From Candidatus Yanofskybacteria bacterium RIFCSPHIGHO2_12_FULL_45_19b (GTDB taxonomy: Bacteria; Patescibacteriota; Minisyncoccia; 2-02-FULL-40-12; IGHO2-12-FULL-4): a DNA stretch of 64,000 bases. Location: contig MGKD01000013.1 in NCBI GenBank assembly GCA_001794605.1, forward strand, positions 13,463 through 77,462, read 5' to 3'. The notes under the pieces were generated by a model that was not told where the DNA came from, searched no databases, and saw only the letters and a program-made list of their open reading frames with translations. Positions 17,954 to 58,335 of the stretch are shown in pieces (the first letter of the stretch is position 1; the number at the start of each line of letters is the position of its first letter). The translations under genes were made by a program, and so were the position numbers.

Positions 17954-19088
17954 ACTGGCGAGTCATCTGTTCTTGGGTGAAGTGCTTGATAATATTTTGG
18001 TGAGCGGCGATGGCCAAGTCTTGACGCAATCGATCAGAAGCCAAAACCGTTTCGATATTACGAGCCAAACGGTTGGGGTTTCTAATCGCTACCACCAAAC
18101 CATTTTCTCCAGAATTAATTAGTTCAGGAATTGCTCCCACCGCCGTCGCTACCACCGGGACCTGGGCGGCCATGGCTTCGAGTACTGACCAGGGAAACCC
18201 TTCTTTGTTTGAGGGCAGGACAAATACATCAAAGGCTTTAAGATAACGTTGGGCCTCGGTTATTTTACCAAGCAAGAAAACTCGCTTCTCTTGACGCAGT
18301 GTTTTAATCAAGCGCTCTAGTTCTGGTCTTAGCCTACCATCGCCGATGATCAAAAAAATTGCCTCTGGGTTAGTAATCTGGGCGGCGGCGCGGATAAAAT
18401 TAGCCGTGTCCTTGGCTGGATAGAAGTTGCCGATCGTGCCAACCACTAAATCAGTTGGCGGGTTGGCCTTTCCAATTTTACTAAATAGTTTTTCTCTCGC
18501 CTCACTGCGTGGTATGAATTCCAAATAGGGATCAATGCCGTTAGGTATGTAAATCAACTCTTTGCGCGGCTTGATGCCTAGTTGTTCAGCTAACTGTCGG
18601 TCGTTTTGGTTGTTAACCACGATGATATCTTTCCAACGAGCACTCAATTTCTCTAAAAGAATATAGAATTTTTTTCGCCAGTAAGACCAGGGGTCATTAA
18701 AAGTCCAACCACCGATGCGGTAAATTACCTTGAGCCAGGGCAGGCGACGTGGCCAACGGGCGGCCAGTGCGCCAATAAAACCAGCTTTGGTGCCATTTAA
18801 AAACAGGACATCTGGCTGGAAGTCTTTAATTAGGGCGCGCAATTCTGATACAGCGCGCAAATTAGCTTGCCAATTACCGTCACGTTGCAAATAGGTTAGT
18901 TGCTGGGTGGCAACCGCTTTTGCTTTCAGTGCCGAATTCAAGCCAGCATCGCCCTCGCTACCAATTGCCACTAAGCACTGAAAGCGATTTTCAGCTAGTT
19001 TGGGGACGAAATTATTAAAAAATTGCTGGGCGCCACCGAGCTCAGATTGAGTGACTACAAAGAGAATTCTGCGCTGTTTTCTAATCAA
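17928..19088 (-). CDS. glycosyltransferase family 4 (GT-B); 5' end abuts/overlaps the IS left inverted repeat
   Basis: EGFPWSVLEAMAAQVPVVATAVGAIPELI motif. No in-frame ATG; only the TTG inside the IS inverted repeat. Confidence 0.8.
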   Translation of the reverse strand: MIRKQRRILFVVTQSELGGAQQFFNNFVPKLAENRFQCLVAIGSEGDAGLNSALKAKAVATQQLTYLQRDGNWQANLRAVSELRALIKDFQPDVLFLNGTKAGFIGALAARWPRRLPWLKVIYRIGGWTFNDPWSYWRKKFYILLEKLSARWKDIIVVNNQNDRQLAEQLGIKPRKELIYIPNGIDPYLEFIPRSEAREKLFSKIGKANPPTDLVVGTIGNFYPAKDTANFIRAAAQITNPEAIFLIIGDGRLRPELERLIKTLRQEKRVFLLGKITEAQRYLKAFDVFVLPSNKEGFPWSVLEAMAAQVPVVATAVGAIPELINSGENGLVVAIRNPNRLARNIETVLASDRLRQDLAIAAHQNIIKHFTQEQMTRQFTRLLDEG

Positions 19089-20009
19089 TAGCTTGGAACC
19101 GCTTTAATGATTTCCATCGGGGTTTTAAAGTTTAATCCCATGTGTGGCCGCTCTGTATTGTAGTATTGAATAAACTCTGGTATTTCTTTTTGCCATGCCT
19201 CCATAGTTCTTGGTATCCGATGCAGACACTCTTTTTGTAGGGTTTGAATGAATCTTTCCACATGAGCATTGTCAGTTGGTGTTCGTACTCGGGTGTGCCG
19301 ATGTTCTAAACCATCATGGATGGTAATCTTGGTAAACCATTTAGCAAACTCCGAGCCATGATCCGTCTGGATGGTCTTGAACGAGAACGGAGCTTGCTCC
19401 CGTGCCGTCCGCATGAAACTGCTGGTGGCTCGACAATTCACCGCCAGCGCTGGTTCCGCATAGGCCCAGCGGGAGCAGACATCAATCAAGGCATAGGCGG
19501 ATAACCTTTCTGCTGGTATCCCCTCATGTACAGCATCAATTTCCACTAACCAGCCTGGTTTTTCTGGCATGGGCCGTTCCGGATACTGGTGCCACTTCTT
19601 CCATTTGGAATACTTTGATATACCATATCTTTTTAGTATTCGTTTGACCGTACTCAGACTGACTACAATATTTCTTTCTGTGCCCAGTCGGTGATGCAGA
19701 ATCTCGGCACACTGACTCCGTTCGCTTCTTAACTCGAGAATCTGTTTCACAATCTCAAGATCAATCTCATTGGGGTGATGGTCTGGTCGTGATGATCGGG
19801 TGGGCAAGAACTGACTGTTGTGGTGCAAGAGCTTGGCTCGTGCTACCCATTTCACCACGGCACTATGGGTAAAGCCAAAGTGCCGTGCCACCGCTCTAAC
19901 ACTCCATCCGGACTGGACTAACCGTACCGCTTCCATCCTGATCCGAGGCAATCGATTGTATATGCTGTACATTCTCATATTCTAGCAGGGGTGGTTCCAA
20001 GGTATTGAA
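19084..20009 (-). mobile_element. IS481-family-like insertion sequence copy 1 (about 926 bp) with 19-bp imperfect terminal IRs
   Basis: IR-L atcaatagcttggaaccgc (19084-19102) pairs with IR-R gtggttccaaggtattgaa (19991-20009) at 16/19. Contains the transposase ORF. Confidence 0.6.
19085..19978 (-). CDS. IS481-family DDE transposase (rve integrase core)
   Basis: N-terminal HTH. WLVEIDAVH, TDHGSEF and DNAHVERF (DDE) motifs. Confidence 0.8.
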   Translation of the reverse strand: MRMYSIYNRLPRIRMEAVRLVQSGWSVRAVARHFGFTHSAVVKWVARAKLLHHNSQFLPTRSSRPDHHPNEIDLEIVKQILELRSERSQCAEILHHRLGTERNIVVSLSTVKRILKRYGISKYSKWKKWHQYPERPMPEKPGWLVEIDAVHEGIPAERLSAYALIDVCSRWAYAEPALAVNCRATSSFMRTAREQAPFSFKTIQTDHGSEFAKWFTKITIHDGLEHRHTRVRTPTDNAHVERFIQTLQKECLHRIPRTMEAWQKEIPEFIQYYNTERPHMGLNFKTPMEIIKAVPSY

Positions 20010-20059
20010 CCATGACATGCGCTTGATTTTACTCTCCATTTGTGGCAGAATAACACAAA

Positions 20060-21208
20060 ATGTCTGATAATGCAAAACCGGTTTTAGTTTTCACTACTGC
20101 CTATCAGCCGCGCGCTAGTGGGGCAGAAATTGCTCTGGCGGCGGTGGCTGAAGGTTTACCACAGATTGATTTTCACATTCTCACTCCACGCTATTACTCC
20201 TCCTCTGCCAAGCTGGAGCAACAAGGGCATATCACCATATATCGTCTAGGCTGGGGTATTTGGTTAGATAAGTGGTTATTCCCTATTTTGGGGTTTTTCG
20301 CCGGTCTAGGGCTCTTAAAACGTCATCCGAGGGCATTGCTACATGCTTGGCAAGCTTCGCAGGCGGGCGGAGCGGCTTGGCTACTGCGTTGGTGGTCCGG
20401 TCGGCCGCTACTGCTTACTTTACAAGAAGGCGAGCGTTTAGACCGTCAGGTTTGGTGGCTGAGATTTTTTCGCTGGTTAATTATCCGTCGGGCCGATCAG
20501 GCAGTGGCGATCAGTCAGTATCTAAAAAAATTCATTCAGACCAGTGCGCCAAACTTGCCCGTAACGGTGATTCCCAACGGCGTTGCTTTGGAGCAGTTTA
20601 CCCATTTATCCAGCTACGGCGAACAAGCTCAGTTGGCTGATCAGTTAGGCATTCGTCCGGGGGATAAAGTGTTGATCCATACCGGAAGACTAGCCACTAA
20701 GAATGGTCTGATCAATCTTCTAAAAGCTATTCCCTTGGTACAAGAAAAACTTTCTCAGACTACAATTAAGCTACTACTGGTTGGCTCTGGCCCAGAAGGT
20801 GATAAATTAGCTAGTTTGGCGCATGAATTAGGAATTGAACAGCAGATTATCTGGATTAAACAGGTTAACCAGGTTCAGTTGGTTAAGTATCTACAATTGG
20901 CCCAGGTGTTTATTCGCCCCTCCTTAACCGAGGGGTTGGGTAATTCTTTTTTGGAGGCCATGGCGGCAGGAGTAGTGATTGTTGGTTCGGGGGTGGGAGG
21001 AATTATTGATTTTCTAAAAGATAGCGAGACTGGTTTGGTTTGTGATCCGCTTAACCCAGCGGATATTGCTGAAAAAATTTATCGACTACTGGATAATAGC
21101 GCGCTTAAACAGAAGCTGGCCGAAGCAGGACAACAGCTAGTATTAGAAAAATATGGCTGGGAGAAAATTGCCACTCAGTATGCTAAGCTTTATCAAAGTA
21201 TTAAATAG
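20060..21208 (+). CDS. glycosyltransferase family 4
   Basis: TEGLGNSFLEAMAAGVVIVGSGVGGIIDFL. Confidence 0.8.
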   Translation: MSDNAKPVLVFTTAYQPRASGAEIALAAVAEGLPQIDFHILTPRYYSSSAKLEQQGHITIYRLGWGIWLDKWLFPILGFFAGLGLLKRHPRALLHAWQASQAGGAAWLLRWWSGRPLLLTLQEGERLDRQVWWLRFFRWLIIRRADQAVAISQYLKKFIQTSAPNLPVTVIPNGVALEQFTHLSSYGEQAQLADQLGIRPGDKVLIHTGRLATKNGLINLLKAIPLVQEKLSQTTIKLLLVGSGPEGDKLASLAHELGIEQQIIWIKQVNQVQLVKYLQLAQVFIRPSLTEGLGNSFLEAMAAGVVIVGSGVGGIIDFLKDSETGLVCDPLNPADIAEKIYRLLDNSALKQKLAEAGQQLVLEKYGWEKIATQYAKLYQSIK

Positions 21209-21210
21209 GT

Positions 21211-21915: not shown

Positions 21916-23072
21916 TGGAAAAGCAAAATAAAATTCTGATTGCTACCGGAATCTTTCCACCAGAAGCAGGGGGGCCAGCTTCTTACGCCCAAGCCTTGGC
22001 AAAAAAGTTGGCACCAGAAAAGAAGGTAGCAGTGGTAACCTATTCACGCCGTTGGGGAGATAAAACGGATAAGTTCCTACCCTTTCCAGTAATACGCATT
22101 TGGAAAGGTTGGCCAAAAGTTTGGCGTCATGTAATTTATTTATTTAGACTATTTACGGCTAGCCAGGGTGCTAGCACAATTCTTGCACTTAATACGGTTA
22201 GTTCTGGTATCCCAGCCACGTTGGTGGCGCGCTGGCGTAAACAGCGTCTGGTAGTGCGGATTGTGGGGGATTATGCTTGGGAGACGGCCGCTAATACCGG
22301 TAAAACTTTTTTTCTTTTGAATGATTTTCAGAAAGCGCCACAGCGTGGGAAAATCAAATTATTACAGAATTGTCAGCGCTGGGTGTGTAAGCAGGCTGAC
22401 TCAATCATTGTCCCATCAGAATATCTCTCTGGCATTGTACAGGGTTGGGGAGTTAAGGCGGAAAAAATTAAAGTTATTTACAACGGAGTAGATTTTCCAG
22501 TTAGCGAGCTTAGCCAGGAAGAAGCCAGAAAAAAAATCGGCATTGCTGGGAATATTATTCTTTCCAGTGGCCGTCTGGTGCCTTGGAAAGGCTTTAAGAT
22601 GTTAATTAAGTTGATGCCACGCTTGTTACAAATTAACCCCTTCTTTCGTCTAGTGATTTTGGGCTCTGGGCCAGATGGGAAAACCCTACAGGCGATGATT
22701 AATAATTTAAGGCTAGAAAAGAAGGTGTACTTGTTACCAGTGCCACGCGCTGAAATCCCACTTTATCTAAAAGCGGCTAGTATCTATGTGTTGAATACCG
22801 GCTATGAGGGTTTTTCACACCAAATTTTGGAGGCGATGCTTAGCCGTGTGCCGGTAATTACTACTCGTGCCGGTGGCAATCCAGAGGTAATTCGTCAAGG
22901 CGAGAATGGCTTCATGGTCAATTATAACGATGAGTTTAATTTGGTGGAGGCAATTAAAACCGTCTGGCAGGGGGAGGAGTTGCGGGAACGCTTTGTCGCC
23001 AATGGATTAATCACTGTTGAACATTTTAGTTTGGAAAAAATGTTCAACGAGACTATGGCGGTGTTAAATTAA
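21915..23072 (+). CDS. glycosyltransferase family 4
   Basis: EGFSHQILEAMLSRVPVITTRAGGNPEVI. Confidence 0.8.
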   Translation: MEKQNKILIATGIFPPEAGGPASYAQALAKKLAPEKKVAVVTYSRRWGDKTDKFLPFPVIRIWKGWPKVWRHVIYLFRLFTASQGASTILALNTVSSGIPATLVARWRKQRLVVRIVGDYAWETAANTGKTFFLLNDFQKAPQRGKIKLLQNCQRWVCKQADSIIVPSEYLSGIVQGWGVKAEKIKVIYNGVDFPVSELSQEEARKKIGIAGNIILSSGRLVPWKGFKMLIKLMPRLLQINPFFRLVILGSGPDGKTLQAMINNLRLEKKVYLLPVPRAEIPLYLKAASIYVLNTGYEGFSHQILEAMLSRVPVITTRAGGNPEVIRQGENGFMVNYNDEFNLVEAIKTVWQGEELRERFVANGLITVEHFSLEKMFNETMAVLN

Positions 23073-23075
23073 TTT

Positions 23076-24188: not shown

Positions 24189-24201
24189 TTGATTAAATAA
24201 T

Positions 24202-25260: not shown

Positions 25261-25264
25261 GACC

Positions 25265-30503: not shown

Positions 30504-32048
30504 TTAGACAAGGCGACGTTTCGCGCCCTCCCAACGCACATCCCCAAATTGAGGCTGGCCGTGCTGGGCCTCCCAAACTGTCTGATACTCACGAATCCGC
30601 TTAATATCACGGGCCACCATTAACTCACGCAGACCGAGCAACTCGACCGCGTTAAAGTTCTCACAGATGACGGCAGTAATCTTAGTCGCGTCTCCCAAGT
30701 CCGTCAGGAAAGCGTCCAGACTGCCATCATACTGTGCCAAGATGCGGTCTTTGTACTTGTTGAACCACTCACTGCCTGGATAAGGAGTAGCAAAGAAGGG
30801 CTTAACCTGAATACCCATCTCCTCCCATGCCTCTACGCAGTCAATCAACGAGTCAAACCAGTCATCCGGAAAGCCCATGATCTGGTTGGGGATTGGTCGG
30901 ATACCGGCTTCCATGGTTACGCGAAGTGAGCGCTTATTGGTTTCAGGCGTGGAACCTTTGCCAACGTTTTTTAATACGCGCTTGGAAAAGGATTCATAGC
31001 CATAAACCAACTGGGAACAGCCCGCCCCATGCATTAGCCGGAGAATTTCCGGATTAGCATGAGCGGCATGACTGGTGCCACCCCAGTGTACGCCATGGCA
31101 GTGTTCTGGATCATGCGGCACGCCATCGCGCACACATTGCGGCTGAAGGCCCGCCTCAATCCAGAGCCGGCAGATTTCCGGTAGCCAGGTATTATGCGTG
31201 GCCGCGTTCATTGCTAACAGATTTTCGTCAAAGAAAATAACGAAATCTGTGCCATACTTATCGCGCATATGTTTGACCATCTGCACGATATATTTAGGGC
31301 TATGCACACGGTTCTCGCGGTTGTAGGTAAAGACCACATCGGCGGCCGGGTTGTTGGGATCCTGATATTGCAGGTCTCCGGCTAGGCCAAGGTGAAAGCA
31401 AAAACGACAGATGAACGGACAGCCGAAACTGCCGTTGACATCCATACGTTTCTTGGCCGAGAAGGCCTCTTCACTGTAGATCAGTGCGGAGTTACGGAGA
31501 TAGATGTCCATCGGGAGCATATCCCAGGCGGGATAAGGCAGGACATCGAGGTTGGGAATTAAGGGGCGAGGTGGAGTAAGGCAGTTGTTTCCAGTGCGAT
31601 CTCGGTAGATTACCCCGAGCGTTTTGGAAAAATCCAAGTCGTCAAGGGCTATCTTTTCTAAAATCTCCGGAAAGGTAACAAAACCTTCACCCACTACCCC
31701 TAAGTCCACTTCTGAGATCAGTCGCATCATATCCTGCGGTATGCTGGTTAAAATACCTCCACCTAAAACTCTTAATGAGCGGGGAGAGTACTGTTTCGCA
31801 TACTGCATAATTTTTTTGGTGTAACCGTAGGTAGTGGTGATACCACCAACCCCGACTACATCCCAGTTGTCGGCTTGCATGACGGCTTTCAAGTCGCCGT
31901 CATCCGGCCGCCAGGCGTTGGCATCGAGAATTTGCACTAGATGCCCAGCCTGGTCAGCCAGAGCGGCCAACTGGGAAATGCCATAGGGGATATGACGGGG
32001 ATCATCCTCTTCCCGTACGACGGGGTTTATCAACAGTACTCTTGCCAC
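30504..32048 (-). CDS. B12-binding radical SAM enzyme (class B radical SAM methyltransferase-like)
   Basis: N-terminal cobalamin-binding fold. CPFICRFC (CxxxCxxC) motif. Confidence 0.8.
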   Translation of the reverse strand: MARVLLINPVVREEDDPRHIPYGISQLAALADQAGHLVQILDANAWRPDDGDLKAVMQADNWDVVGVGGITTTYGYTKKIMQYAKQYSPRSLRVLGGGILTSIPQDMMRLISEVDLGVVGEGFVTFPEILEKIALDDLDFSKTLGVIYRDRTGNNCLTPPRPLIPNLDVLPYPAWDMLPMDIYLRNSALIYSEEAFSAKKRMDVNGSFGCPFICRFCFHLGLAGDLQYQDPNNPAADVVFTYNRENRVHSPKYIVQMVKHMRDKYGTDFVIFFDENLLAMNAATHNTWLPEICRLWIEAGLQPQCVRDGVPHDPEHCHGVHWGGTSHAAHANPEILRLMHGAGCSQLVYGYESFSKRVLKNVGKGSTPETNKRSLRVTMEAGIRPIPNQIMGFPDDWFDSLIDCVEAWEEMGIQVKPFFATPYPGSEWFNKYKDRILAQYDGSLDAFLTDLGDATKITAVICENFNAVELLGLRELMVARDIKRIREYQTVWEAQHGQPQFGDVRWEGAKRRLV

Positions 32049-32050
32049 GA

Positions 32051-33073
32051 CTAGCCTCCGTTCTGTCCAAATTTGTTTAGAAATTCAGACAGAGAAATGA
32101 AGTTTATGTTGGCACCAAAAAGAGTGCCTCCTTCGGTGCAGTTATAAGTAGTGCACGGGGCCTGCTTGGCCAGTTCCAGGATAATCTCCCGGAACCAGTA
32201 GTAGGTTGGATCCGTGTACCAAGTCTCGTTGAGGTACGGGTTTTGAATCTCGATGTAGGCTTCGGCGACCCGTTCGCCGAATAAATCACGCAGTTCGTAA
32301 AAGTACTGCGTATTGAGGAAGGGAGTGCCGGGGGCGTATCCGAGATCAAATCCGGCTAAGGCTACCTGCCGATGTCCCAATACCGCCCAGGAAAAAATGT
32401 AGGCAGCGGTGCCGACATTGCCACCGGTGTTCATACAAGGAATACCGCCGGTTAGACCTACTAGCTCGCGGGTGACAGTTTGGGTGGGATCATCTGGGTC
32501 ATCGTAAAATTGATTCCACCAGTAGATATCCATACCCGATTCCACACAGCGTTTGGTGACGGTAGGATCAACGCTGGTGCAGAGGATGGCTTTAATTTTA
32601 GAGCCGTGCTGGTTTACTAGCTCGGTTAACTCCTGATTATAGCGCATCTCGTCTTCCCAATACTTAGGGTCAAAGTCCTGTCGCCGGAAGTAATCATCCG
32701 GTGGTCGGCTAGCCAGGTCAGGATCGCCGAACCAACGCACGATACGATACGGGTTGGGGTCTAAACAGACCATGTATTGGGGGATAACACCATGGCGCAG
32801 GCAATAACCAAAGCTGCCATCGGCGGTGATGATATCGCCAGTGAAGTTGGTTTGGGCGATGCGGGCGGCGGTATGCTTACGATGCAGGCTCGGTCCACCT
32901 ACCACTACGATGGCGGCACTGTCTGGCCCATGCTTTGGAATCAACAAGTCATCAATTGTTTTTCGGTAATGCGGACGATTCAATTTGGCATTGCGGAGGC
33001 CCACGGCGGTAACTTTGTCCGCCGTGAGCTTGCTGACGAACTGGGCGATTTGCTTACCTAGGTTATTCTCCAT
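32051..33073 (-). CDS. DUF115/MptE-like protein, Maf-like putative nonulosonic-acid glycosyltransferase
   Basis: VVVGGPSL, ITADGSF, PQYMVCLDP and GGNVGTAAYIFSWAVLGHRQVALAGFDLGY motifs typical of DUF115/Maf. Confidence 0.6.
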   Translation of the reverse strand: MENNLGKQIAQFVSKLTADKVTAVGLRNAKLNRPHYRKTIDDLLIPKHGPDSAAIVVVGGPSLHRKHTAARIAQTNFTGDIITADGSFGYCLRHGVIPQYMVCLDPNPYRIVRWFGDPDLASRPPDDYFRRQDFDPKYWEDEMRYNQELTELVNQHGSKIKAILCTSVDPTVTKRCVESGMDIYWWNQFYDDPDDPTQTVTRELVGLTGGIPCMNTGGNVGTAAYIFSWAVLGHRQVALAGFDLGYAPGTPFLNTQYFYELRDLFGERVAEAYIEIQNPYLNETWYTDPTYYWFREIILELAKQAPCTTYNCTEGGTLFGANINFISLSEFLNKFGQNGG

Positions 33074-34472: not shown

Positions 34473-34478
34473 TTAGGT

Positions 34479-37720: not shown

Positions 37721-37721
37721 G

Positions 37722-39575: not shown

Positions 39576-39578
39576 AAT

Positions 39579-40559: not shown

Positions 40560-40563
40560 TTTA

Positions 40564-41577: not shown

Positions 41578-41586
41578 ACAATATTT

Positions 41587-42630: not shown

Positions 42631-43781
42631 AAAAGGGTAGAAAGCGGGTGGTATTTTTAACTGGTACACGGGCTGACTTCGGTAAGCTTAAATCGCTTAT
42701 CTTAGCGTTGCGTAAAGCCCTGGGATTTGATGTGCAGATTTTTGCTACCGGCATGCACATGTTGGCAGATTACGGCTATACCGTAAACGAGATTGAAAAG
42801 TGCGGGATCCGTAATATTTATAAGTATATTAGCTATTCCGGCCAAGCTTCTCAAGAAGTTATTTTGGCAAGTACCATGGTTGGTTTTGGTAATTATATTA
42901 AAGAATTTAAACCCGATTTAATCATAGTACATGGAGACCGATTGGAGGCTTTAGCGGGTGCTTTGGCTGGTAGTTTTAATAATGTTCTGGTCGCGCATAT
43001 TGAAGGTGGTGAGCTTTCTGGCACGCTAGATGGGCATATTCGTCACGCTATCACTAAGTTATCTAATATTCATTTTGTAGCTAATGGTGAAGCTAAAACC
43101 AGAGTAAAACAATTGGGCGAGGATCCCAAAAGTATTTTCGAAATCGGTTCGCCAGATGTCGATGTGATGTTATCAAAAAAATTACCCACCTTAACTCAGG
43201 CCAAGAAGCGCTATGCTATAAATTATGATCACTATGCTATTTTGCTCTATCATCCAGTTACTACCGAACTAGGTTCTTTGGAACGAGACGTGGAAGAATT
43301 AATTAGGGCCATGGTAAAGTCGGAAATGAATTATATAGTAATCCACCCCAACAATGACCCAGGGTCGGATATTATTCGTACCCATTATTATGGTCAATTA
43401 GCTGCCAATTCTCATTTTCGCCTTTTTCCTTCTCTGCGCTTCGAATACTTTCTTACTATATTGCGACACGCTCATTTTATTATTGGTAATTCTAGTTCTG
43501 CAGTAAGGGAGGCTCCTTATTTTGGTGTCCCTGCACTCAATGTTGGTACGCGTCAAGCAGATAGGATATTTGGGGTAGAAAGTGTCTCCAATCATAATCA
43601 TCAAGAAGCCGGAATTTTGGCAGCGATTAAAAGATTTTCTACAAAGAAAAAGCGCTTTCAAGTCAGAAAGGCTTTTGGGCGAGGCAATAGTGATAAGAAT
43701 TTTGTAAAAGTTTTAGAACAGAAGAACATTTGGCAAAATGGTATACAGAAAAAGTTTAATGATATCAATAAAATTATTTAA
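42615..43781 (+). CDS. UDP-N-acetylglucosamine 2-epimerase, NeuC/LegG-like (hydrolysing type)
   Basis: VVFLTGTRADFGKL, HIEGGE, GNSSS. Confidence 0.75.
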   Translation: MEDYLKKGRKRVVFLTGTRADFGKLKSLILALRKALGFDVQIFATGMHMLADYGYTVNEIEKCGIRNIYKYISYSGQASQEVILASTMVGFGNYIKEFKPDLIIVHGDRLEALAGALAGSFNNVLVAHIEGGELSGTLDGHIRHAITKLSNIHFVANGEAKTRVKQLGEDPKSIFEIGSPDVDVMLSKKLPTLTQAKKRYAINYDHYAILLYHPVTTELGSLERDVEELIRAMVKSEMNYIVIHPNNDPGSDIIRTHYYGQLAANSHFRLFPSLRFEYFLTILRHAHFIIGNSSSAVREAPYFGVPALNVGTRQADRIFGVESVSNHNHQEAGILAAIKRFSTKKKRFQVRKAFGRGNSDKNFVKVLEQKNIWQNGIQKKFNDINKII

Positions 43782-43785
43782 GAGA

Positions 43786-44505
43786 ATGTATAAATCTAAA
43801 AAAACACTAGCGGTTATTCTTGCGCGTGGTGGCTCCAAAGGTTTACCTGGGAAGAACATCATTCCGCTTAAGGGTCGTCCACTGATTGCCTGGACGATTA
43901 CGGCTGCGCTGGAAGCAAAGTTAATTGATAGGGTGGTGGTTTCTTCGGACAGTGTTGATATTCTTGCTGTGGCCAAGCGGTATGGGGCAGACACTATTAA
44001 AAGACCAAAAAAGTTAGCTACCGATCAAATTCGACCAGAACTGGCGATACAACATGTTTTGGCGACACTAAGAAAGAATGAAAGTTATATCCCCGAACTA
44101 TTAATTTTACTGCAACCGACTTCTCCTTTGCGTACAGCCGAGGACATTGATAATGCCGTTGAGCTGTTGTTAAAAAATGATCCGCGGGTGGATGCGGTAG
44201 TGAGTGTTTCGGAGATAGATCGGCGACTGTTGAAGTCTCTAGTGGCAGATGAAAATGGCTATCTAACGCACTTTACTGTGCGTGGCTTTCTACTAATGCG
44301 TCGACAAGACTTGCCACCGGTATTTTTTACCAACGGGGCTATCTATCTAGTAAAAACATTATGGTTTTTAAAAAGTAACTCCTTGTTTCCCAAACGTACT
44401 GTGCCTTATGTTATGAGCGAGGACAATAGCCAGGATGTCGACACTCCGGAAGATTTAAAAAAAATAGAAAAATTAATGGCATTAAAAAAGTATGGGTACA
44501 AATAA
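43786..44505 (+). CDS. acylneuraminate (CMP-nonulosonate) cytidylyltransferase-like
   Basis: LAVILARGGSKGLPGKN; LQPTSPLR. Confidence 0.8.
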   Translation: MYKSKKTLAVILARGGSKGLPGKNIIPLKGRPLIAWTITAALEAKLIDRVVVSSDSVDILAVAKRYGADTIKRPKKLATDQIRPELAIQHVLATLRKNESYIPELLILLQPTSPLRTAEDIDNAVELLLKNDPRVDAVVSVSEIDRRLLKSLVADENGYLTHFTVRGFLLMRRQDLPPVFFTNGAIYLVKTLWFLKSNSLFPKRTVPYVMSEDNSQDVDTPEDLKKIEKLMALKKYGYK

Positions 44506-45226
44506 AAGAAAAATTTTAGCCTTTATCCCAGCGCGCAGTGGCTCCAAGGGCTTGCCCGGGAAGAATATTATTAAAGTAGCTGGTCTGCCACTGATTGCTT
44601 ACTCCATTAATTCTGGAAGGAGCGCTAAATTGGTAGATAAGATTCTGGTTTCGACGGATAGTCCGCAGATAGGCAGGGTGGCGAAGCGTTATGGCGCGAT
44701 CGTCCCCTTTTTGCGTCCGGCCAAACTAGCTACTGATACAGCGCCAACCATTGATGCAGTGATGCATGCGTTGCGCTGGCTGGAAGATAGCGGTGAACAG
44801 TATGATGCGGTAGCACTGTTAGAGCCAACCTCACCTTTGCGCAAAGCGGGTGATATTGATAGGGCTATCAAGATTCTACTTGATAACTGGGAGAAAACCG
44901 ATGCGGTAGTTAGTTTGGGGGAGATTGCGCTAGAGAGTCCCTATATTGCCAAGAAAGTCCAAAATGGCTATGTCCGGCCGTTAATTAAAGTCCCTGGTCT
45001 GACTACCCGTCGGCAAGATTTGCCCAAGGCCTATTTTCCTTATGGAGTAATTTACTTATGTAAAACCACCACCCTTGAAAAGGAAAAAACCTTCTATCCA
45101 AAAAGAATCATGCCTTATTATATTGAACGTTGGCAGAATTACGAGGTCGATGATATCTGGAACCTAGTTACGATTGAGGCGGTTATTAAGTGTTTAAAAA
45201 CAGCAAAAGTAAATAATAAAAAATAA
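44492..45226 (+). CDS. acylneuraminate cytidylyltransferase-like (second copy)
   Basis: LAFIPARSGSKGLPGKN; LEPTSPLR. Confidence 0.8.
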   Translation: MGTNKRKILAFIPARSGSKGLPGKNIIKVAGLPLIAYSINSGRSAKLVDKILVSTDSPQIGRVAKRYGAIVPFLRPAKLATDTAPTIDAVMHALRWLEDSGEQYDAVALLEPTSPLRKAGDIDRAIKILLDNWEKTDAVVSLGEIALESPYIAKKVQNGYVRPLIKVPGLTTRRQDLPKAYFPYGVIYLCKTTTLEKEKTFYPKRIMPYYIERWQNYEVDDIWNLVTIEAVIKCLKTAKVNNKK

Positions 45227-45227
45227 A

Positions 45228-46544
45228 ATGAAGTTTACTCAATCAAACAAGTTACGCAAGCGGGCACATGCGCTTATCCCTGGTGGAGCGCATACCTATA
45301 GCAAAGGAGATGATCAATTTCCCAAACTGTCGCCCGGCTTTATTGTTAAGGGCAAAGGGGCTTATGTTTGGGATGCAGATGGAAATAAGTTTTTAGATTG
45401 GGCGATGGGGTTACGTTCTACCACGCTTGGTCATGGCTATGTCTCAGTAGTTCAGGCGGTAAAAAAACAACTACCTTTCGGAGCTAATTTTAGTCGCCCG
45501 TCTATCTTAGAGGTGGAGTTGGCTGATTTATTGACTAAGATTATCCCTTGTGCGGAAATGGTAAAGTTTGCAAAAAACGGTTCAACCATTACCACAGCGG
45601 CAGTAAAGTTGGCGCGTGCTCACACCAAGCGCGATATAGTGGCAGTTTGTTCTGATCATGCCTTTTTTAGTTATGACGATTGGTTTATTGGTACCACTCC
45701 AGCTGATGCTGGTGTTCCCCAGGCGATTAAAGATCTAAGCGTTACTTTCAAATTTAACGATTTAGAAAGCGTTCGTGCTTTATTTAAAAAATATCCCAAG
45801 CAAATTGCCTGTGTTATTTTGGAACCAGCTACCGAAGTGGAGCCACGAGATAACTTCTTGCATGGCGTACAGGCGCTCTGCCAAGAAAATGGGGCGGTGT
45901 TTATTTTAGATGAAATGATTTCGGGTTTTCGCTGGCATCTCAAGGGGGCACAACATACCTACAAGATTACTCCCGATCTGGCTACCTATGGCAAGGGGAT
46001 TGCTAATGGTTTCTCGGTCTGTGTCCTGGCCGGTAAACGTGAAATTATGGAGCGCGGAGGCATCCAGGGTGGCCATGAACGAGTATTTCTTATTTCTACC
46101 ACGCATGGAGCAGAGAACCATGCTTTAGCCGCAGCGATTGCCACCATAAAAGAAATACAAGGAAAAAAAGTTATTCCGCACCTGTACCATATTGGCGCTC
46201 TACTACAGACCCGTCTTAATGCTATTGCTAAAAAATATAAACTGGGCGAGATTGTCAATGTTTTTGGCGAGGTGTCATGTCGGCTGGCGACAACTTTTGC
46301 TGCCGTCGGTACTTATACTAATTTTCAAGTTAAGACCTATTTTCTGCAAGAGTTGATCAGTCAAGGAATTTTGTTCAACGGCTATTTCGCACCCAGTTAT
46401 TCTCATGGCAAGCGCGAAATAGAAAAAACCGTGCTGGCTTGGGACTATGCTTGCCGAAAACTGCAACAGGCTGTAACTAATAAAGATTTAGAGAAAAAGT
46501 TAATAGGCGATCCAGTTAAGCCGGTGTTTCGCAAGTATAATTAG
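45228..46544 (+). CDS. class III PLP aminotransferase (glutamate-1-semialdehyde aminomutase-like)
   Basis: Class III fold pattern. DEMISGFRW motif. Confidence 0.7.
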   Translation: MKFTQSNKLRKRAHALIPGGAHTYSKGDDQFPKLSPGFIVKGKGAYVWDADGNKFLDWAMGLRSTTLGHGYVSVVQAVKKQLPFGANFSRPSILEVELADLLTKIIPCAEMVKFAKNGSTITTAAVKLARAHTKRDIVAVCSDHAFFSYDDWFIGTTPADAGVPQAIKDLSVTFKFNDLESVRALFKKYPKQIACVILEPATEVEPRDNFLHGVQALCQENGAVFILDEMISGFRWHLKGAQHTYKITPDLATYGKGIANGFSVCVLAGKREIMERGGIQGGHERVFLISTTHGAENHALAAAIATIKEIQGKKVIPHLYHIGALLQTRLNAIAKKYKLGEIVNVFGEVSCRLATTFAAVGTYTNFQVKTYFLQELISQGILFNGYFAPSYSHGKREIEKTVLAWDYACRKLQQAVTNKDLEKKLIGDPVKPVFRKYN

Positions 46545-46561
46545 AAGACTAAACAATAACT

Positions 46562-47584
46562 ATGAACAAGAAAATAAAGTTTCTACAGGTGGGACTGGGG
46601 TCAATGGGAAAACGACGTATTCGTTGTCTGTTGCATTTAGGTATACAGTCGGAACAAATTTTTGGTTTTGACCCCGTGCCGAGTAAGCGGACGAAGGCGG
46701 AAAGCGAATATGCCATTAAAACTTTTAGTAACTTTAAACAAGCAGTGGCTACTGTAAACCCCGATGTCTACATCGTCTCTACTCCACCGGATAAGCATGC
46801 CCCCTACTTTCTTTTCGCTGCAAGGCAGAAAAAACACGTTTTTGTAGAAGCAACTACGCTTGCCGATGGTTATCGACAACTAGAAAAAATGCAGGACGGT
46901 AGTTTTATTGCCGCCGCCTCTTGTAGTTGGCGTTATCTCCCGGCAATTAAAAAGATCGGTCAATTGGTGAAACAAGGCCGTATTGGGAAAGTTCTGTCTT
47001 TTCAGTATCACATGGGGCAGTATCTACCGGATTGGCACCCCTGGGAAGACTATCGTAAGGTATATTTCGCTAAAAAAGTAACTGGTGCTTGTCGAGAAAT
47101 GTTTCCCTTTGAGTTGGTTTGGATTAATCACATTCTGCAGTCGTCAGTAAAACGGATCAGTGGCCTGGTCAGGAAGTTGTCTGATTTAGACATGTCGGCG
47201 GATGACCTTTATGCAGCGGTGTTAGAGTATAAAAGCGGGGTGGTAGGCACGGTCAGTATTGATGTTTTGGCGCGTACTGCTTTACGCACCCTACGCCTGG
47301 TTGGTACAGAGGGAGTTTTGGATTGGGACTGGCTTAACTATCAGATAAAAATTTTTTCAGTGCGTAAAAAAAAGTGGCAGACTATTTCTTTGCGAGCCGG
47401 TAGGGCGGAGAAAAATTATGTTACCACCGAAGATATGTATCAGGAGGAAATTAAACAGTTTCTGGATGCCATCGCGGGCAAGCAGGCCTATCCCTATAGT
47501 TTTGCGGAAGATCAGCAGATTCTAAATACCACTTTTGCTTTAGAAAAAAGTTCCAGAACCGGAAAGACTTGCCGGGTAGCTTAA
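46562..47584 (+). CDS. Gfo/Idh/MocA-family NAD(P) oxidoreductase
   Basis: KFLQVGLGSMGKRR Rossmann N-terminus. Confidence 0.7.
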   Translation: MNKKIKFLQVGLGSMGKRRIRCLLHLGIQSEQIFGFDPVPSKRTKAESEYAIKTFSNFKQAVATVNPDVYIVSTPPDKHAPYFLFAARQKKHVFVEATTLADGYRQLEKMQDGSFIAAASCSWRYLPAIKKIGQLVKQGRIGKVLSFQYHMGQYLPDWHPWEDYRKVYFAKKVTGACREMFPFELVWINHILQSSVKRISGLVRKLSDLDMSADDLYAAVLEYKSGVVGTVSIDVLARTALRTLRLVGTEGVLDWDWLNYQIKIFSVRKKKWQTISLRAGRAEKNYVTTEDMYQEEIKQFLDAIAGKQAYPYSFAEDQQILNTTFALEKSSRTGKTCRVA

Positions 47585-47590
47585 TATAAA

Positions 47591-48742
47591 ATGGCGACTA
47601 CGAAGAAAAAAATTGCATATATTTCTGGTACGCGAGCTGATTTCGGCATTATGACCGCTATTTTAGAGGCGATTCGACAGCATCCAGCCCTGGATTTACA
47701 GTTGTATGCTACTGGGGTTCATCTGACTCCGGGATTTGGTACAACTTATCGGATGATTCAAAAACTTTTTTCACGGACCAAGCTAATTCGCGCAAGCTTT
47801 CAGTCGGATGATTTCTTTGGGGTAGCGCGTTTTTCTGGTCAGTTTATCTCTAAACTAGTTAGTATCTTTTCTAAGGATCGTCCAGATTTTGTGCTGTTAT
47901 TGGGGGATCGTCCAGAGCAGTTATGTGTGGCGCTGGTCTGTTTGTATTTGGGTATTCCCGCCGGGCATTTCAGAGGAGGTGAGGTTTCTTCTACTTTTGA
48001 CGAGACTGCTCGCCATGCCATTACCAAGCTGGCGAGTTTGCATTTTCCCGCCACCAAGGAGGCAGCCAAGAGAATTGAGAAAATGGGGGAGGAAAAATGG
48101 CGCATTCACACGGTGGGAGAGGCATCTCTAGACGTAATCTTGCACCAACCATTGCCCAGTCGAGAGGCCGTATTAAAGTTTCTGGGATTAGCGGCGGGAC
48201 AAAAGTTTATTTTACTAACACAACATCCAGTAAGCTATGAGCTGGCCGACACTAGTCAACAGATTCGGGAAACTATAAAAGCGGTTAAAGCCATCGGCTT
48301 GCCAGTTGTAGTAACCTACCCGCATGCTGATGCTGGCGGAAGAAAGATTATTCTTGAAATTGAAAGAGAAAGAGATAATTCATTATTTAAAATTTTTCCT
48401 AGTTTGGAATACAAACTTTTTTTAGCGTTAGAACGAGAAGCGGCCGTTTGGGTCGGTAACTCCAGCGGTGCCTTGGTAGAATCCTCTTCTTTTGCCACGC
48501 CAGTAGTAAATATCGGTACTCGGCAAAAAGGTCGTCAACGTGGTGGAAACGTGCTTGACGTTGGTTATGATCAGGATGAAATTATAGTTGCCATCAAAAA
48601 ATCTCTAGCCCTAAGCTACCTAGCTAAGTTAAAAAGACTAAAAAATCCTTGGGGGGATGGCAAGACCGGGAAACGGGTGGCAGAAATTATAGGAAATCTA
48701 ACTATTGACAATAAACTGTTAAACAAACAGATCGCTTATTGA
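47591..48742 (+). CDS. UDP-N-acetylglucosamine 2-epimerase NeuC-like (second paralog)
   Basis: IAYISGTRADFGIM, HFRGGE, GNSSG. Confidence 0.75.
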   Translation: MATTKKKIAYISGTRADFGIMTAILEAIRQHPALDLQLYATGVHLTPGFGTTYRMIQKLFSRTKLIRASFQSDDFFGVARFSGQFISKLVSIFSKDRPDFVLLLGDRPEQLCVALVCLYLGIPAGHFRGGEVSSTFDETARHAITKLASLHFPATKEAAKRIEKMGEEKWRIHTVGEASLDVILHQPLPSREAVLKFLGLAAGQKFILLTQHPVSYELADTSQQIRETIKAVKAIGLPVVVTYPHADAGGRKIILEIERERDNSLFKIFPSLEYKLFLALEREAAVWVGNSSGALVESSSFATPVVNIGTRQKGRQRGGNVLDVGYDQDEIIVAIKKSLALSYLAKLKRLKNPWGDGKTGKRVAEIIGNLTIDNKLLNKQIAY

Positions 48743-48828
48743 TAAGTGTGAGTCACCGTAGGTTAAATATGACAAGTCTAAATAAATGTGTTAGAAGTTT
48801 AGAAGATTCATTAAAAAGGGGGTTTGGC

Positions 48829-49602
48829 ATGTCTAAACTGAAAAAAGCAGTACTTTTGGGGAGAAAAAAGGGAGCTAGCGATGCGCTGATCCATCTATGG
48901 CGCTTAGGGGTGGAGGTTCCCTTGGTGGTAGTAGAGGGTTCTGACTTGGCGGAGTCGGCGGGGCGATTAGGTATTAAGGTCTTGTTTGACGATGCTGAAT
49001 TATATACCCTAATTGAACAAGGCGATCAGTTGGTGACGGAGGTGGATTTGGTGGTTTCTTATTTGTTTGTAAAACGGATTAAGGAGCCACTTTTTAAGCT
49101 GGGTCGCCTGGGTTGTCTGAACTTTCATCCAGCACCGTTACCGGATTACAAAAGTCGAGCGGGCTACAACACAGCAATTTTGGATCGCAAAAATGAGTTT
49201 GGGGTCAGTGTTCATTTTATCGACTCAGAGCAATTTGATGCTGGTCCGATTATTGAGGTGTTGCGTTGGCCGATTGATTCGCAAGCAGAGACAGTGCTTT
49301 CACTAGAGAGTACCGCCCAGGAAAAACTGTTCGTATTATTTAAGAAAACGATACAACGTTTTATGCGCGGTGAACAAATTATCACTTTCGCTAACGCCGG
49401 AGGATACTATTTAACCTCTAAACAATTGGAAGCCATGAAAGAAGTTGATCTAGAAAAAGATTCACTGGAGGAAATTGATCGCAAGATCAGGGCGTTCTTT
49501 TTTCCACCCTATACCGGGGCGTACATTAGAGTGGGTGGCCAGAAGATTACCCTAGTAAACCAGACAGTTCTCGATCTGTTAGCTAGAAAGATCACCAAAT
49601 GA
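48829..49602 (+). CDS. formyltransferase-domain protein (sugar N-formyltransferase/Fmt-like)
   Basis: NFHPAPLPDYKSRAGYNTAIL, like the NIHPSLLPKYRG formyltransferase motif. Confidence 0.55.
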   Translation: MSKLKKAVLLGRKKGASDALIHLWRLGVEVPLVVVEGSDLAESAGRLGIKVLFDDAELYTLIEQGDQLVTEVDLVVSYLFVKRIKEPLFKLGRLGCLNFHPAPLPDYKSRAGYNTAILDRKNEFGVSVHFIDSEQFDAGPIIEVLRWPIDSQAETVLSLESTAQEKLFVLFKKTIQRFMRGEQIITFANAGGYYLTSKQLEAMKEVDLEKDSLEEIDRKIRAFFFPPYTGAYIRVGGQKITLVNQTVLDLLARKITK

Positions 49603-50732
49603 AATATCCGATTGCAAAACCCTATATTGGGAAGGAGGAAAAAGCTGTGGTAGCTAAGGTTTTGCGTTCCGGTGTTCTGAGTATTGGGCCAGAGGTGGTA
49701 GCTTTTGAAAAAGCCTTTGCGCTGAAACTTGGAACTAAGTTTGCTTGCGCGGTTTCTAGTGGTACGGCCGGACTGCACCTGACTATGTTGGCCGCCGGAC
49801 TTAAAAAGGGGGATGAGGTTTTAACTTCCCCCTTTTCTTTTATTGCGTCTGCCAATGCCATTCTTTATGTAGGCGCTACCCCGGTATTTGTAGACATCAA
49901 TCCGGTTAGTTTCAATATTGATCCGGACAAAATTGAAGAAAAGATTACCACCAAGACCAAGGCTATTTTGGTAGTACATATTTTTGGACAGTCTGCTGAT
50001 ATGAAACCAATTCTAAAACTAGCCAATAAATATAAGTTAAAAGTAATTGAGGATGCTTGTGAGTCTTTGAATGCCAGCTATCACGGCAAAAAGGTGGGGA
50101 CCTTTGGTGAGTCGGCCGTGTTTGCCTTCTATCCCAATAAACAGATGACTACGGGTGAAGGCGGTATGATAGTTACTAACGACCGATCAGTTGATGCTTT
50201 GTGCCGTAGTCTGCGTAATCAAGGACGCTCTGGTAATATGCAGTGGTTAGATCACGAACGACTGGGCTATAATTATCGCCTGGATGAGATGAGCGCCGCC
50301 CTGGGACGAGTGCAACTGCAAAAGTTAGACTGGTTAATTGCCGAGAAACGACGTATCGCCGCGCTTTACAAGAAGCATCTGGCGCCGTATCAAAAATTTT
50401 TACTATTGCCAAGAATTATATCAGGCAATATTCATAGTTGGTTCGTTTACGTGATCAATATCAAAAACCCTTTAATAAAAAGAGACGCAGTGATTGAAGA
50501 CCTAGAAAAACTAGGTATCAGCACCAAGGCTTATTTGCCCTCTATCCACCTGTTTAGTTTTTATAAAAAACTATTTAAGTATAAGCGGGGAGATTTTCCA
50601 GTTTCTGAAGCGGTGAGCGATTGTTCACTCGCCCTCCCGTTCTATATTGGCTTAAAAGAAAAAGATATAAAAATAATCAGTAATATAGTGGTAGCTACAC
50701 TAGAAAAACATGAAAAATATCTTCAAAAATAA
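49599..50732 (+). CDS. DegT/DnrJ/EryC1/StrS-family sugar aminotransferase (PseC/LegC-like)
   Basis: AFYPNKQMTTGEGGMIVTND. Confidence 0.85.
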   Translation: MKYPIAKPYIGKEEKAVVAKVLRSGVLSIGPEVVAFEKAFALKLGTKFACAVSSGTAGLHLTMLAAGLKKGDEVLTSPFSFIASANAILYVGATPVFVDINPVSFNIDPDKIEEKITTKTKAILVVHIFGQSADMKPILKLANKYKLKVIEDACESLNASYHGKKVGTFGESAVFAFYPNKQMTTGEGGMIVTNDRSVDALCRSLRNQGRSGNMQWLDHERLGYNYRLDEMSAALGRVQLQKLDWLIAEKRRIAALYKKHLAPYQKFLLLPRIISGNIHSWFVYVINIKNPLIKRDAVIEDLEKLGISTKAYLPSIHLFSFYKKLFKYKRGDFPVSEAVSDCSLALPFYIGLKEKDIKIISNIVVATLEKHEKYLQK

Positions 50733-51711: not shown

Positions 51712-51713
51712 AC

Positions 51714-53943: not shown

Positions 53944-53961
53944 TGCTGCTATTTATCTGCT

Positions 53962-55340: not shown

Positions 55341-55355
55341 ACTTTAGTTTTTCAC

Positions 55356-55394
55356 AAAAGCCGGACGATACCGCCCGGCTTTTGTATTGTTTTG
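55356..55394 (+). terminator. rho-independent terminator aaaagccgg...ccggctttt + T-run
   Basis: Stem-loop followed by ttttgtattgtttt. Confidence 0.6.
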
Positions 55395-55420
55395 CTGATC
55401 TGGTATAGTTTTGATAAATT

Positions 55421-57372: not shown

Positions 57373-57393
57373 CTTACGTGATACGTTTTCTCC

Positions 57394-58218
57394 TCATGAC
57401 CTTTGCAACACTTCGGCTGGGGTTTGGAATTTGATCCCCATGTGTAAGCGTTGATTGTTGTAATAGTCTAAATATCGTTCAATCTTCCTGTTAAGTAAAG
57501 GCAGATTGGTTTTGTATTGATAGATCTCTTTTTGTAAATCTTCTTGGATAGTTCGATTGAACCTCTCTACATGGGCATTGTCATTGGGTTTTCTGACTCG
57601 ACAGTGCCGATGTCTGGTTCCTAGTGTTTGCACTAACTTGGTAAAGTAGTGAGAGAATTCACTGCCATGATCAGACTGAACACATTGGAATCGGAAAGAG
57701 GCCTTGCGCTGAGCTGCTAAGATGAATTCCTGGGCTAGCCTAGCACTAAGTTTCTGGCTTGCTCTAGCGTACGCCCACCTGGAGCAACAATCAATCAAGG
57801 TAAAGATATATATCCGCTTTCTCTCGTTTAAGTAAACATTGATGGTGTCAGTTTCCACTAATATTCCAGGCTTTTCCGGCATGGGGCGCATGCCTGATAG
57901 ATGATACTTTTTCCACTTACTCCTGGTCTTAACCAGCCCCTTTCTTCTTAAGGTCCGCTCTACACTAGAAAGACTAACCTTAATATTTTCTCTCAGCAGT
58001 TGAGCATGGACAACTTGAGCACATCTTTTTGTTTGCTTTCTGATTTGAACGATTCTTTCCACAATAGCCTCGGCTAGAGCGGTTGGTCTGCCAATCGCAG
58101 CACTGCTACGAGTAGGGATGATTCTTGCCTCAGCCTGAGTGCTTCTTTTCATCCAGCGACTGACTGTACTGGCTTGCACTCCAATGTGTTTAGCGACCCT
58201 TCGCATGCTCCAAACCAC
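57394..58218 (-). CDS. IS481-family DDE transposase (diverged paralog of 19085-19978)
   Basis: ILVETDTINV, SDHGSEF and NDNAHVERF motifs. Shares PTRSS, RPMPEKPG and LID.CSRWAYA with copy 1. Confidence 0.8.
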   Translation of the reverse strand: MVWSMRRVAKHIGVQASTVSRWMKRSTQAEARIIPTRSSAAIGRPTALAEAIVERIVQIRKQTKRCAQVVHAQLLRENIKVSLSSVERTLRRKGLVKTRSKWKKYHLSGMRPMPEKPGILVETDTINVYLNERKRIYIFTLIDCCSRWAYARASQKLSARLAQEFILAAQRKASFRFQCVQSDHGSEFSHYFTKLVQTLGTRHRHCRVRKPNDNAHVERFNRTIQEDLQKEIYQYKTNLPLLNRKIERYLDYYNNQRLHMGIKFQTPAEVLQRS

Positions 58219-58335
58219 CTTGTCTAACCAAGTTAACTGCCCCAGCTCTTAGCTTGGGCATATATGGATTCTGTGTGTATGGCATACCCTCCATTCTATA
58301 CATTTTAAAGCGAGGGTGTTGCCAAGGTGATGAAT
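57394..58335 (-). mobile_element. IS481-family-like insertion sequence copy 2 (about 942 bp)
   Basis: IR-L tcatgacctttgcaacac (57394-57411) pairs with IR-R gtgttgccaaggtgatgaa (58317-58335). 10-bp direct repeat ttacgtgata at 57374-57383 and 58338-58347. Confidence 0.6.

Follow-up and report, generated by a model that had tools for sequence, protein, structure and literature searches.

Two independent, polymorphic IS481-family insertions beside promoter-like sequences in a glycan gene cluster of Candidatus Yanofskybacteria

Two IS481-family elements at the locus

The window analyzed here (the whole 64-kb stretch of contig MGKD01000013.1) comes from a groundwater Candidatus Yanofskybacteria population (Patescibacteria; candidate phyla radiation, CPR) and carries two insertion sequences (ISs), IS1 and IS2, among glycan biosynthesis genes. 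IS1 lies in the first codons of a gene for a GT4 glycosyltransferase, and IS2 lies upstream of a NUDIX gene (Table 1). An initial annotation had described two IS481-like copies in the same orientation that bracket a glycan island and could delete or mobilize it. The family and the shared orientation were confirmed, both elements lying on the minus strand with NCBIfam IS481 as their best match. The account that we favor, at a probability of about 85%, is nevertheless one of two separate simple insertions, each with its own target-site duplication, polymorphic in the population and targeted to promoter-adjacent sites.

Table 1. Positions of the two insertion sequences, their repeats and reading frames, and associated features in the window
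Feature	Position	Strand	Basis or remark
IS1, complete IS481-family element	19075-20017 (943 bp)	minus	TGT...ACA ends; empty-site alleles and clade termini
IS1 target-site duplication, left copy TGCGC	19070-19074	unstranded	empty allele versus window
IS1 target-site duplication, right copy TGCGC	20018-20022	unstranded	empty allele versus window
IS1 transposase-distal inverted repeat (IRR)	19075-19100	minus	contains transposase stop and GT4 start
IS1 transposase-proximal inverted repeat (IRL)	19993-20017	minus	inverted-repeat search and clade ends
IS1 transposase, intact, 297 aa	19085-19978	minus	helix-turn-helix (HTH_23) and rve/rve_3 DDE core
IS2, IS481-family element with defective transposase	57384-58342 (959 bp)	minus	CGT...ACG ends; empty sites and clade termini
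IS2 target-site duplication (most likely), left copy TGATA	57379-57383	unstranded	empty allele, clade termini
IS2 target-site duplication (most likely), right copy TGATA	58343-58347	unstranded	empty allele, clade termini
IS2 transposase main frame, 274 aa from GTG	57394-58218	minus	DDE core intact, first half of helix-turn-helix missing
IS2 transposase N-terminal fragment, 37 codons, other frame	58190-58303	minus	1-nt insertion near 58220-58226
GT4 glycosyltransferase open reading frame	17928-19088	minus	first 5 codons (TTG-ATT-AGA-AAA-CA) from IS1 end
Orphaned native GT4 5' end (ATG 20037-20039 and 6 codons)	20018-20039	minus	empty-allele comparison
Promoter-like site adjoining IS2 duplication, TTGACG-N18-TACGAT	58348-58377	plus	also called by promoter scan
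Weak promoter-like site adjoining IS1 duplication, TTGATT-N17-CAGAAT	20023-20051	plus	2+2 mismatches
Glycan biosynthesis genes between IS1 and IS2	20060-57372	plus	domain/homology annotation

To define the ends of the clade to which both elements belong, the two window copies were aligned and ends were extracted from approximately 50 related loci. The transposase-proximal terminus of the clade reads yGTAATGGT-TCAATAGCTTGG and the distal terminus CCAAGCTATTGA-TTAGAAAACr (kept in approximately 40 relatives). Elements of the clade span 921-977 bp, mostly about 945 bp, and at loci whose flanks belong together the duplication length is 5 bp or, in some cases, 6 bp; at least 12 relatives have duplications of 5-6 bp. 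The inverted-repeat (IR) cores quoted in the initial annotation were found in both elements and are the top inverted repeats of their regions, with 94% complementarity in IS1 (19085-19100/19993-20008) and 89% in IS2 (57394-57411/58316-58333). The true ends, however, fall 9-10 nt beyond these cores, and the previously given limits (19084-20009 for IS1 and 57394-58335 for IS2) were revised as listed in Table 1.

The limits of IS1 were read from the comparison of occupied and empty alleles. Empty site 1 in the related contigs L001 and L002 is gaattcTGCGCTtgatttt, whereas the occupied window has TGCGC followed by TGTTTTCTAA at one end and CCATGACA followed by TGCGCT at the other. In a longer view, the empty allele is gaattcTGCGCTtgattttactctccat, and the window runs from gaattcTGCGC into TGTTTTCTAATCAATAGC and from GGTATTGAACCATGACA into TGCGCTtgatttt. 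The duplication, which was absent from the initial annotation, is thus 5 bp long, and a single ambiguous T would formally permit 6 bp. The termini of IS2, CGTTTTCTCC and ATCATTACG, agree with the clade consensus, and its CGT...ACG tip variant is common to 17 of 42 relatives. The IRs and duplications of both elements could be aligned with those of related elements; a failure of this alignment would have refuted the initial annotation on its own terms.

The IS1 transposase is encoded by a single open reading frame (ORF) of 297 aa, with candidate acidic residues located in EIDAV, QTDHGSEF, and NAHVERF, and the D, D, and E motifs are conserved in both transposases. Public records call the two proteins with other starts, at 295 aa for IS1 and 270 aa for IS2, and the IS2 protein on record at NCBI derives from a Candidatus Yanofskybacteria MAG (metagenome-assembled genome). 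In IS2, joining the two reading frames restores HTH_23 and LZ_Tnp_IS481. The frameshift resembles a 1-nt insertion, and a slippery site is absent there; it is identical, and ungapped against the window, in at least eight independent assemblies (L079-L086), indicating that it is real and not a sequencing error.

The two transposases are 41% identical over 273 residues, lower than the 45-50% previously proposed, and the two elements are 53% identical at the DNA level, with a longest common exact run of 11 nt. NCBIfam IS481 (NF033577) was the best family match of both proteins (191.5 and 181.6 bits), although the fact that both scores lie under the curated cut-off of 224 counts against the assignment. 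With PF13011 (LZ_Tnp_IS481), whose cut-off is 22.2, the frame-repaired IS2 protein reached a score of 25.5 and the IS1 protein one of 18.7. Members of the IS481 family have inverted repeats with TGT...ACA tips and target duplications of 2-15 bp (PMC10045372). The tips of IS1 (TGT...ACA) and IS2 (the CGT...ACG variant) are of this type, the duplications of 5 bp in both elements fall within this range, and the arrangement is that of the family, namely a single DDE ORF with an N-terminal helix-turn-helix (HTH) and an rve core and without programmed frameshifting. By these structural features, IS1 and IS2 are real IS481-family insertion sequences. They branch deeply, with approximately 30% identity to the nearest annotated IS481 transposases in a plasmid collection search, and they are very small for the family (943-959 bp). 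Their duplication is 5 bp long, compared with 6 bp in most of the family. The IS481 type element of Bordetella pertussis targets NCTAGN; the target here is instead a TTGACA-like hexamer.

Empty sites and insertion polymorphism

Close homologues of the window GT4 protein come from Patescibacteria. One of them, P0001 (387 aa, 99% identical to the window GT4), is encoded on three groundwater contigs without the IS, where its gene sits 20 bp from a divergent gene for a 382-aa GT4 protein. Contig L001 lacks IS1 and is otherwise 99.7-99.99% identical to window positions 7945-30079. L001 also seemed to lack 40 bp of window 22836-22887, but this stretch proved to be a run of N (a scaffold gap) and not a strain difference. 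In the more distant relative L004, whose GT4 is 77% identical, the same gene order is present across site 1, again with no IS. Of 24 contigs with an identical copy of the neighboring 382-aa GT4, the 7 listed all have IS1, whereas in the 3 contigs without the IS the GT4 allele is that of P0001.

At site 2, five contigs (L005, L006, L007, L009, and L011) lack IS2, and their flanking GT9 and NUDIX genes are 100% identical to those of the window. These contigs have a single copy of the 10-mer TTACGTGATA in an intergenic gap of 100 bp. IS2 is present in L008, L013, and L079-L086. Sample ERZ4903070 contained the empty site-2 allele (k141_2207134, L005) alongside the IS2 allele (k141_980393, L085), the latter assembled only as a 1-kb fragment. 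The co-occurrence of both alleles in one sample indicates that the IS2 insertion is polymorphic in the population at one time point.

Each exact transposase sequence on record occurs at one site only. Because the two duplications are separate and a precise empty allele that keeps the glycan genes exists for each site, IS1 and IS2 are two independent, polymorphic simple insertions. The occupied and empty alleles together provide direct population evidence for a currently or recently active IS in a CPR bacterium.

Promoter-like sequences adjacent to the insertions

To quantify target choice, 42 unique IRL-side flanks (independent sites) were compared with 31 flanks of the other end. TTGACA with at most 1 mismatch was found at offset 5 or 6 in 32 of the 42 IRL-side flanks against a background of 0.97% (P ~6e-56), with the position counts T38 T41 G36 A36 C34 A27 (n = 42). 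A -35/-10 pair with a spacing of 16-18 nt was present in 33/42 IRL-side flanks, compared with 1.2% of the background, and in 0/31 flanks of the other end. Furthermore, 29 of the 32 hexamers had a -10 partner, compared with 15% of background hexamers (P ~4e-21). Outside the transposase-proximal end, (T)GTCAA stands one duplication length from the tip in almost every relative, which on the opposite strand gives an outward-facing TTGACA. Most long flanks contain an outward-reading ORF that begins 45-215 nt from the IS, and the upstream neighbor is usually divergent in the called-gene tables of the relatives. These results show a statistical association of the insertions with promoter-like sequence.

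The spacers of different copies of one IS are unrelated, and the motif is present in the empty alleles of both window sites, indicating that the motif is a property of the target and not of the IS. On the same two grounds, the idea that the flanking promoter is part of the IS was ruled out. The promoter-like site next to IS2 is upstream of the NUDIX gene (58437-59144), and its -10 element differs by one base between haplotypes (TACGAT in the window and TATGAT in the empty allele of L005). The site next to IS1 ends 8 nt ahead of the ATG of the divergent GT4 gene (20060-21208).

On these data, members of the clade would insert in one orientation only, their duplication lying directly against a TTGACA-like hexamer at the transposase-proximal end, and the targeted hexamer would usually form part of an outward-facing sigma-70-type promoter (TTGACA-N17-TATAAT). 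Since the duplication abuts the -35 side of an outward promoter, the promoter core would be left intact. IS2 would have landed in the same way upstream of the promoter of the NUDIX gene. We slightly favor, from sequence comparison, the view that a Patescibacteria-wide clade of minimal (~945 bp) IS481-like elements may act as "promoter hunters" at sigma-70-type -35 hexamers.

Several observations weigh against this view. The IS1-adjacent site (TTGATT-N17-CAGAAT) is weak and lies under the promoter-scan threshold, and approximately 10 of the 42 sites have no good hexamer. Purifying selection against gene-disrupting insertions could yield the -10 enrichment without any sensing of promoters. In addition, matching duplications are lacking in approximately half of the copies from metagenomes, which weakens the duplication statistics from MAGs; these missing duplications can be attributed to assemblies that are chimeric across IS copies. 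Among L059-L077 (transposases P0218 and P0206), chimeric assemblies were seen in which the same left flank is joined to differing right flanks and vice versa, which calls for caution in any flank-based analysis of short-read MAGs.

In the searchable (incomplete) literature, we found neither an IS described as targeting -35 hexamers nor any IS481-like elements described from CPR bacteria. If confirmed, -35-adjacent targeting would extend the short list of site-specific DDE insertion sequences by a new class of target. It would also bear on how transposons persist in tiny, gene-dense genomes, with the flank of the -35 hexamer as a safe haven, and insertions would mark real promoters, allowing promoters of uncultured CPR bacteria to be found from sequence only. 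The IS flanks of L021-L076, with their canonical TTGACA-N17-TATAAT look, offer a ready sample of Patescibacteria promoters.

The GT4 gene at the IS1 site

The position of IS1 at the start of the GT4 gene is explained by the divergent neighbor: the gap between the two genes is 20 bp, and the hexamer of the neighbor lies in GT4 codons 4-6. By landing beside TTGATT, IS1 would have cut the first six codons off the GT4 gene. The native 5' sequence is ATG GAG AGT AAA ATC AAG CGC AGA ATT, which IS1 split after nucleotide 22, and the window version, starting from the distal end of the IS, is TTG ATT AGA AAA CAG CGC AGA ATT. The native N-terminus MESKIKRRILF (P0001 and P0002) is accordingly replaced by (M)IRKQRRILF. 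These data bear out the earlier proposal that the insertion lies in the first GT4 codons and that a TTG inside the IS end supplies the sole usable start. The sole in-frame ATGs are at about codons 321 and 374, and starting at any other in-frame start would remove the first Rossmann strand.

Within the IRR of IS1, the transposase stop codon TGA (19085-19087) overlaps the GT4 start codon TTG (19086-19088) as TTGA. The TIGR03088 alignment starts at residue 7 of the window GT4 protein, indicating that the GT4 fold is complete. The window gene is free of stop codons, and its differences from the IS-free allele comprise 9 synonymous and 3 non-synonymous codons. A 47-codon ORF running into IS1 now begins at the orphaned native start, so transcription from the native promoter would cross the transposase gene into GT4. 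The distal end of IS1 happens to carry an open outward frame from the TTG, in phase with the rest of GT4, and the protein is possibly still made as an (M)IRKQ fusion by transcriptional read-through and coupled translation. We give expression of this predicted fusion about even odds.

The competing explanation, which we rate at slightly less than an even chance, is that IS1 knocked out GT4, that the TTG ORF is an unexpressed by-product, and that the strain tolerates the loss. IS1 now separates the gene from its native promoter, ribosome-binding region, and start by 943 bp, a Shine-Dalgarno-like sequence is not evident ahead of the TTG, and the promoter scan found no promoter-like site toward GT4 at the IS1 end. 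Many paralogous GT4 genes are present in the cluster. A further point against an expressed fusion comes from L072, in which an IS-end TTG fusion is also called on a clearly truncated racemase. On the other side, the fusion is in frame, which has a 1-in-3 chance, and only six residues are lost, all upstream of the conserved fold. The TTGA overlap is a classic coupling arrangement, neither stops nor frameshifts interrupt the GT4 ORF, and in most samples it was the IS1 allele that assembled. A 943-bp insertion that re-heads a glycosyltransferase gene could alter surface-glycan expression between strains.

Other members of the clade also have one open outward frame at the distal IS end (TTG ATT AGA AAA CA), as in L072 (932-1306) and L073. 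In L072, the called 124-aa ORF joins the IS end to the C-terminal half of an Asp/Glu racemase. As such IS-end fusion ORFs recur in the clade, they need not be functional.

Target recognition and the route of transposition

The IRs at both ends of the element contain TTGA in their core (ATTGAAC and ATTGATT), and the most conserved bases of the target are TTGA(C). We infer that one DNA-binding domain could read both the ends and the target, because TTGA is common to the IR cores and the target.

Alternatively, the adjacency to promoters could result from recruitment to sigma factor or RNA polymerase at the -35 region, or from the structure of promoter DNA. This possibility draws on the correctly spaced -10 partner of 91% of the targeted hexamers and on sites that combine a poor -35 with a perfect -10 at the right distance, such as GTTACT-N17-TATAAT in L068 and TTGCAT-N17-TATAAT in L054. 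However, conservation is strongest in the hexamer, whose distance from the IS end is fixed at 5-6 bp, and the TTGA core in both IRs would allow one DNA-binding domain to serve ends and target. Selection against insertions in genes would enrich true promoters too, and the N-terminal HTH matched sigma-70 region 4 only at the level of a generic HTH (19.5 bits versus a cut-off of 25.7). This alternative appears unlikely. Two related ideas were rejected. A transposase HTH that is specifically sigma-70-region-4-like was not retained, as the match is sub-threshold and stands among approximately 20 generic HTH families. Mimicry of a pseudo-end, in which the target TGTCAA resembles the tip TGTCAT, is disfavored by the fact that the tip-equivalent bases are the least conserved in the target.

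Additional information on transposition came from L078 (Logan unitig SRR25490540_704863), a 980-bp contig that consists of a 945-bp IS (transposase P0206, a relative 70% identical), the spacer GGGCC, and a 30-nt overlap with the contig start. The spacer equals the flank beside the distal end of another copy (L071). L078 thus closes into a circle, as expected of an excised IS or of a tandem dimer. Because this signature fits a circular intermediate, transposition would probably follow a copy-out-paste-in route through a circle, as in IS3-type elements. The junction in L078 would read TTGATT-N16-TATGGT, a possible junction promoter.

Among the known elements, the closest parallel in behavior is the ISAjo2 group. 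The IS1202 group is nested in the IS481 family by transposase phylogeny (PMC10045372), and the ISAjo2 group of the IS1202 family comprises "dif-site hunters", 1.5-kb elements whose transposases of 441-457 aa have extra TnsB-like domains (PMC10132070). ISAjo2-group elements have TGT...ACA ends and a 5-bp duplication and always insert in the same orientation (PMC10132070). The geometry found here is the same, with a fixed orientation and a 5-bp duplication abutting a host site. The site, however, is a TTGACA-like hexamer and not a XerC half-site, so that the ISAjo2 group hunts a recombination site and the present clade, as predicted, a promoter hexamer. The elements here also differ in being approximately 945 bp long, with transposases of ~295-297 aa that have only the HTH and rve domains.

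A second parallel is IS911 of the IS3 family, which transposes by copy-out-paste-in and can insert beside sequences resembling its own ends. The rve DDE core is related, and L078 has a junction of ends with a spacer of duplication length, whereas the OrfA/OrfAB frameshift arrangement of IS3-family elements is lacking here. The conserved part of the target (TTGA/TTGAC) matches the IR core in the present clade and not the TGT tip.

The clade is otherwise restricted to Patescibacteria. Six members (L030, L036, L040, L041, L047, and L052) are on short contigs from MAGs assigned to Pseudomonadota, Gammaproteobacteria, Ignavibacteria, or Archaeoglobales, which may reflect mis-binning of CPR contigs or real transfers.

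Length of the IS2 duplication

IS2 is flanked by an exact 10-bp repeat, TTACGTGATA, at 57374-57383 and 58338-58347. The initial annotation reported this repeat correctly and read it as a direct repeat of the element, but its last 5 nt, TGATA, most likely constitute the duplication. The first 5 nt, TTACG, are most likely the IS2 terminus on the right, and on the left they most likely match sequence that the target already had. If the full 10 bp were the duplication, the element would end with GATGAATCA (58337). The 10-mer occurs once in the empty site and twice in the occupied site, a point that counts against the shorter duplication, and 10 bp is in the range of 2-15 bp spanned by IS481-family duplications (PMC10045372). 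A 10-bp duplication would, however, strip IS2 of the clade terminus yGTAATGrT, which the addition of TTACG restores exactly (CGTAATGAT), and would break the terminal complementarity of CGT...ACG. It would also depart from the 5-bp (rarely 6-bp) duplications of IS1 and at least 12 relatives and place the TTGACG hexamer 0 bp from the duplication, unlike the fixed spacing in the clade. The longer duplication is thus quite improbable.

Relation of the IS pair to the glycan gene cluster

The two ISs do enclose glycan genes, as the initial annotation stated, but they do not mark the boundary of an island, because glycan genes run on outside both elements. Tn10/Tn5-type composite transposons are bounded by two IS copies. 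The present locus resembles them in that two ISs of one family, in the same orientation, surround an accessory-looking gene block, with glycan genes filling the interval and a GC content inside it that ranges from 0.38 to 0.52. It differs from them in that the copies are unlike, each has its own duplication and an independent empty site, one transposase is defective, and the block exists without the ISs.

The DNA of the two elements diverges as described above, and their IR cores are unlike. The outer flanks (TGCGC for IS1 and TGATA for IS2) do not match, there is no single shared duplication, and the two ends are not copies of one shared element. Precise empty alleles exist for each site in contigs of 99.7-100% identity that still hold the adjacent glycan genes, and synteny across site 1 is kept in the 77%-identical relative. 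In each of these empty alleles, one IS is missing and the cluster stays in place. The GC content has no step at 19-20 kb or 57-58 kb, that is, at either IS, and neither a tRNA nor an integrase was found within the 64-kb window; the borders, shift in composition, and absence from relatives that characterize a genomic island were thus not observed. Given 53% identity and common runs of at most 11 nt, homologous recombination between IS1 and IS2 would not be expected.

A same-orientation pair acting as a composite-transposon-like or recombination unit that imports, moves, or deletes the 37-kb glycan island is accordingly a highly improbable explanation and largely refuted: the pair does not delimit, move, or readily delete the cluster. 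Both insertions are ordinary, and the idea of an IS-bracketed island should be removed from annotations.

Further matches to the IR cores were also considered. Exact matches at 2354 and 24651 have no IS termini and are chance hits inside genes, and the number of IR-core matches in the window is not above that in shuffled sequences.

Content of the glycan gene cluster

The genes between the two ISs encode GT4, GT2, and PMT_2 transferases, radical-SAM/B12 and MptE-like proteins, a Wzm/Wzt-type ABC exporter, HisF/HisH-like proteins, methyltransferases, NeuB, two UDP-GlcNAc 2-epimerases, two cytidylyltransferases, aminotransferases, a formyltransferase, and GT9. To the left of IS1 are genes for TPR/PMT-like proteins, and to the right of IS2 are genes for a 766-aa GT1-methyltransferase, epimerases, and a Polysacc_synt flippase.

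Two stretches of the cluster stand out. At 30504-33073 (minus strand), the B12-binding radical-SAM and MptE-like genes have a GC content of 0.50-0.52, compared with approximately 0.40 in their neighbors, which suggests a mosaic origin within the glycan cluster that is unrelated to the IS elements. At 36962-50732, the genes for NeuB, the two UDP-GlcNAc 2-epimerases, the two cytidylyltransferases, class-III and DegT aminotransferases, the formyltransferase, and the HisF/HisH-like pair look like a predicted pathway for a nonulosonic-acid (legionaminic or pseudaminic-like) sugar. The Wzm/Wzt-type ABC exporter at 33648-35735 adjoins this stretch, and a predicted nonulosonic-acid pathway together with an exporter is a notable feature for a reduced CPR genome.

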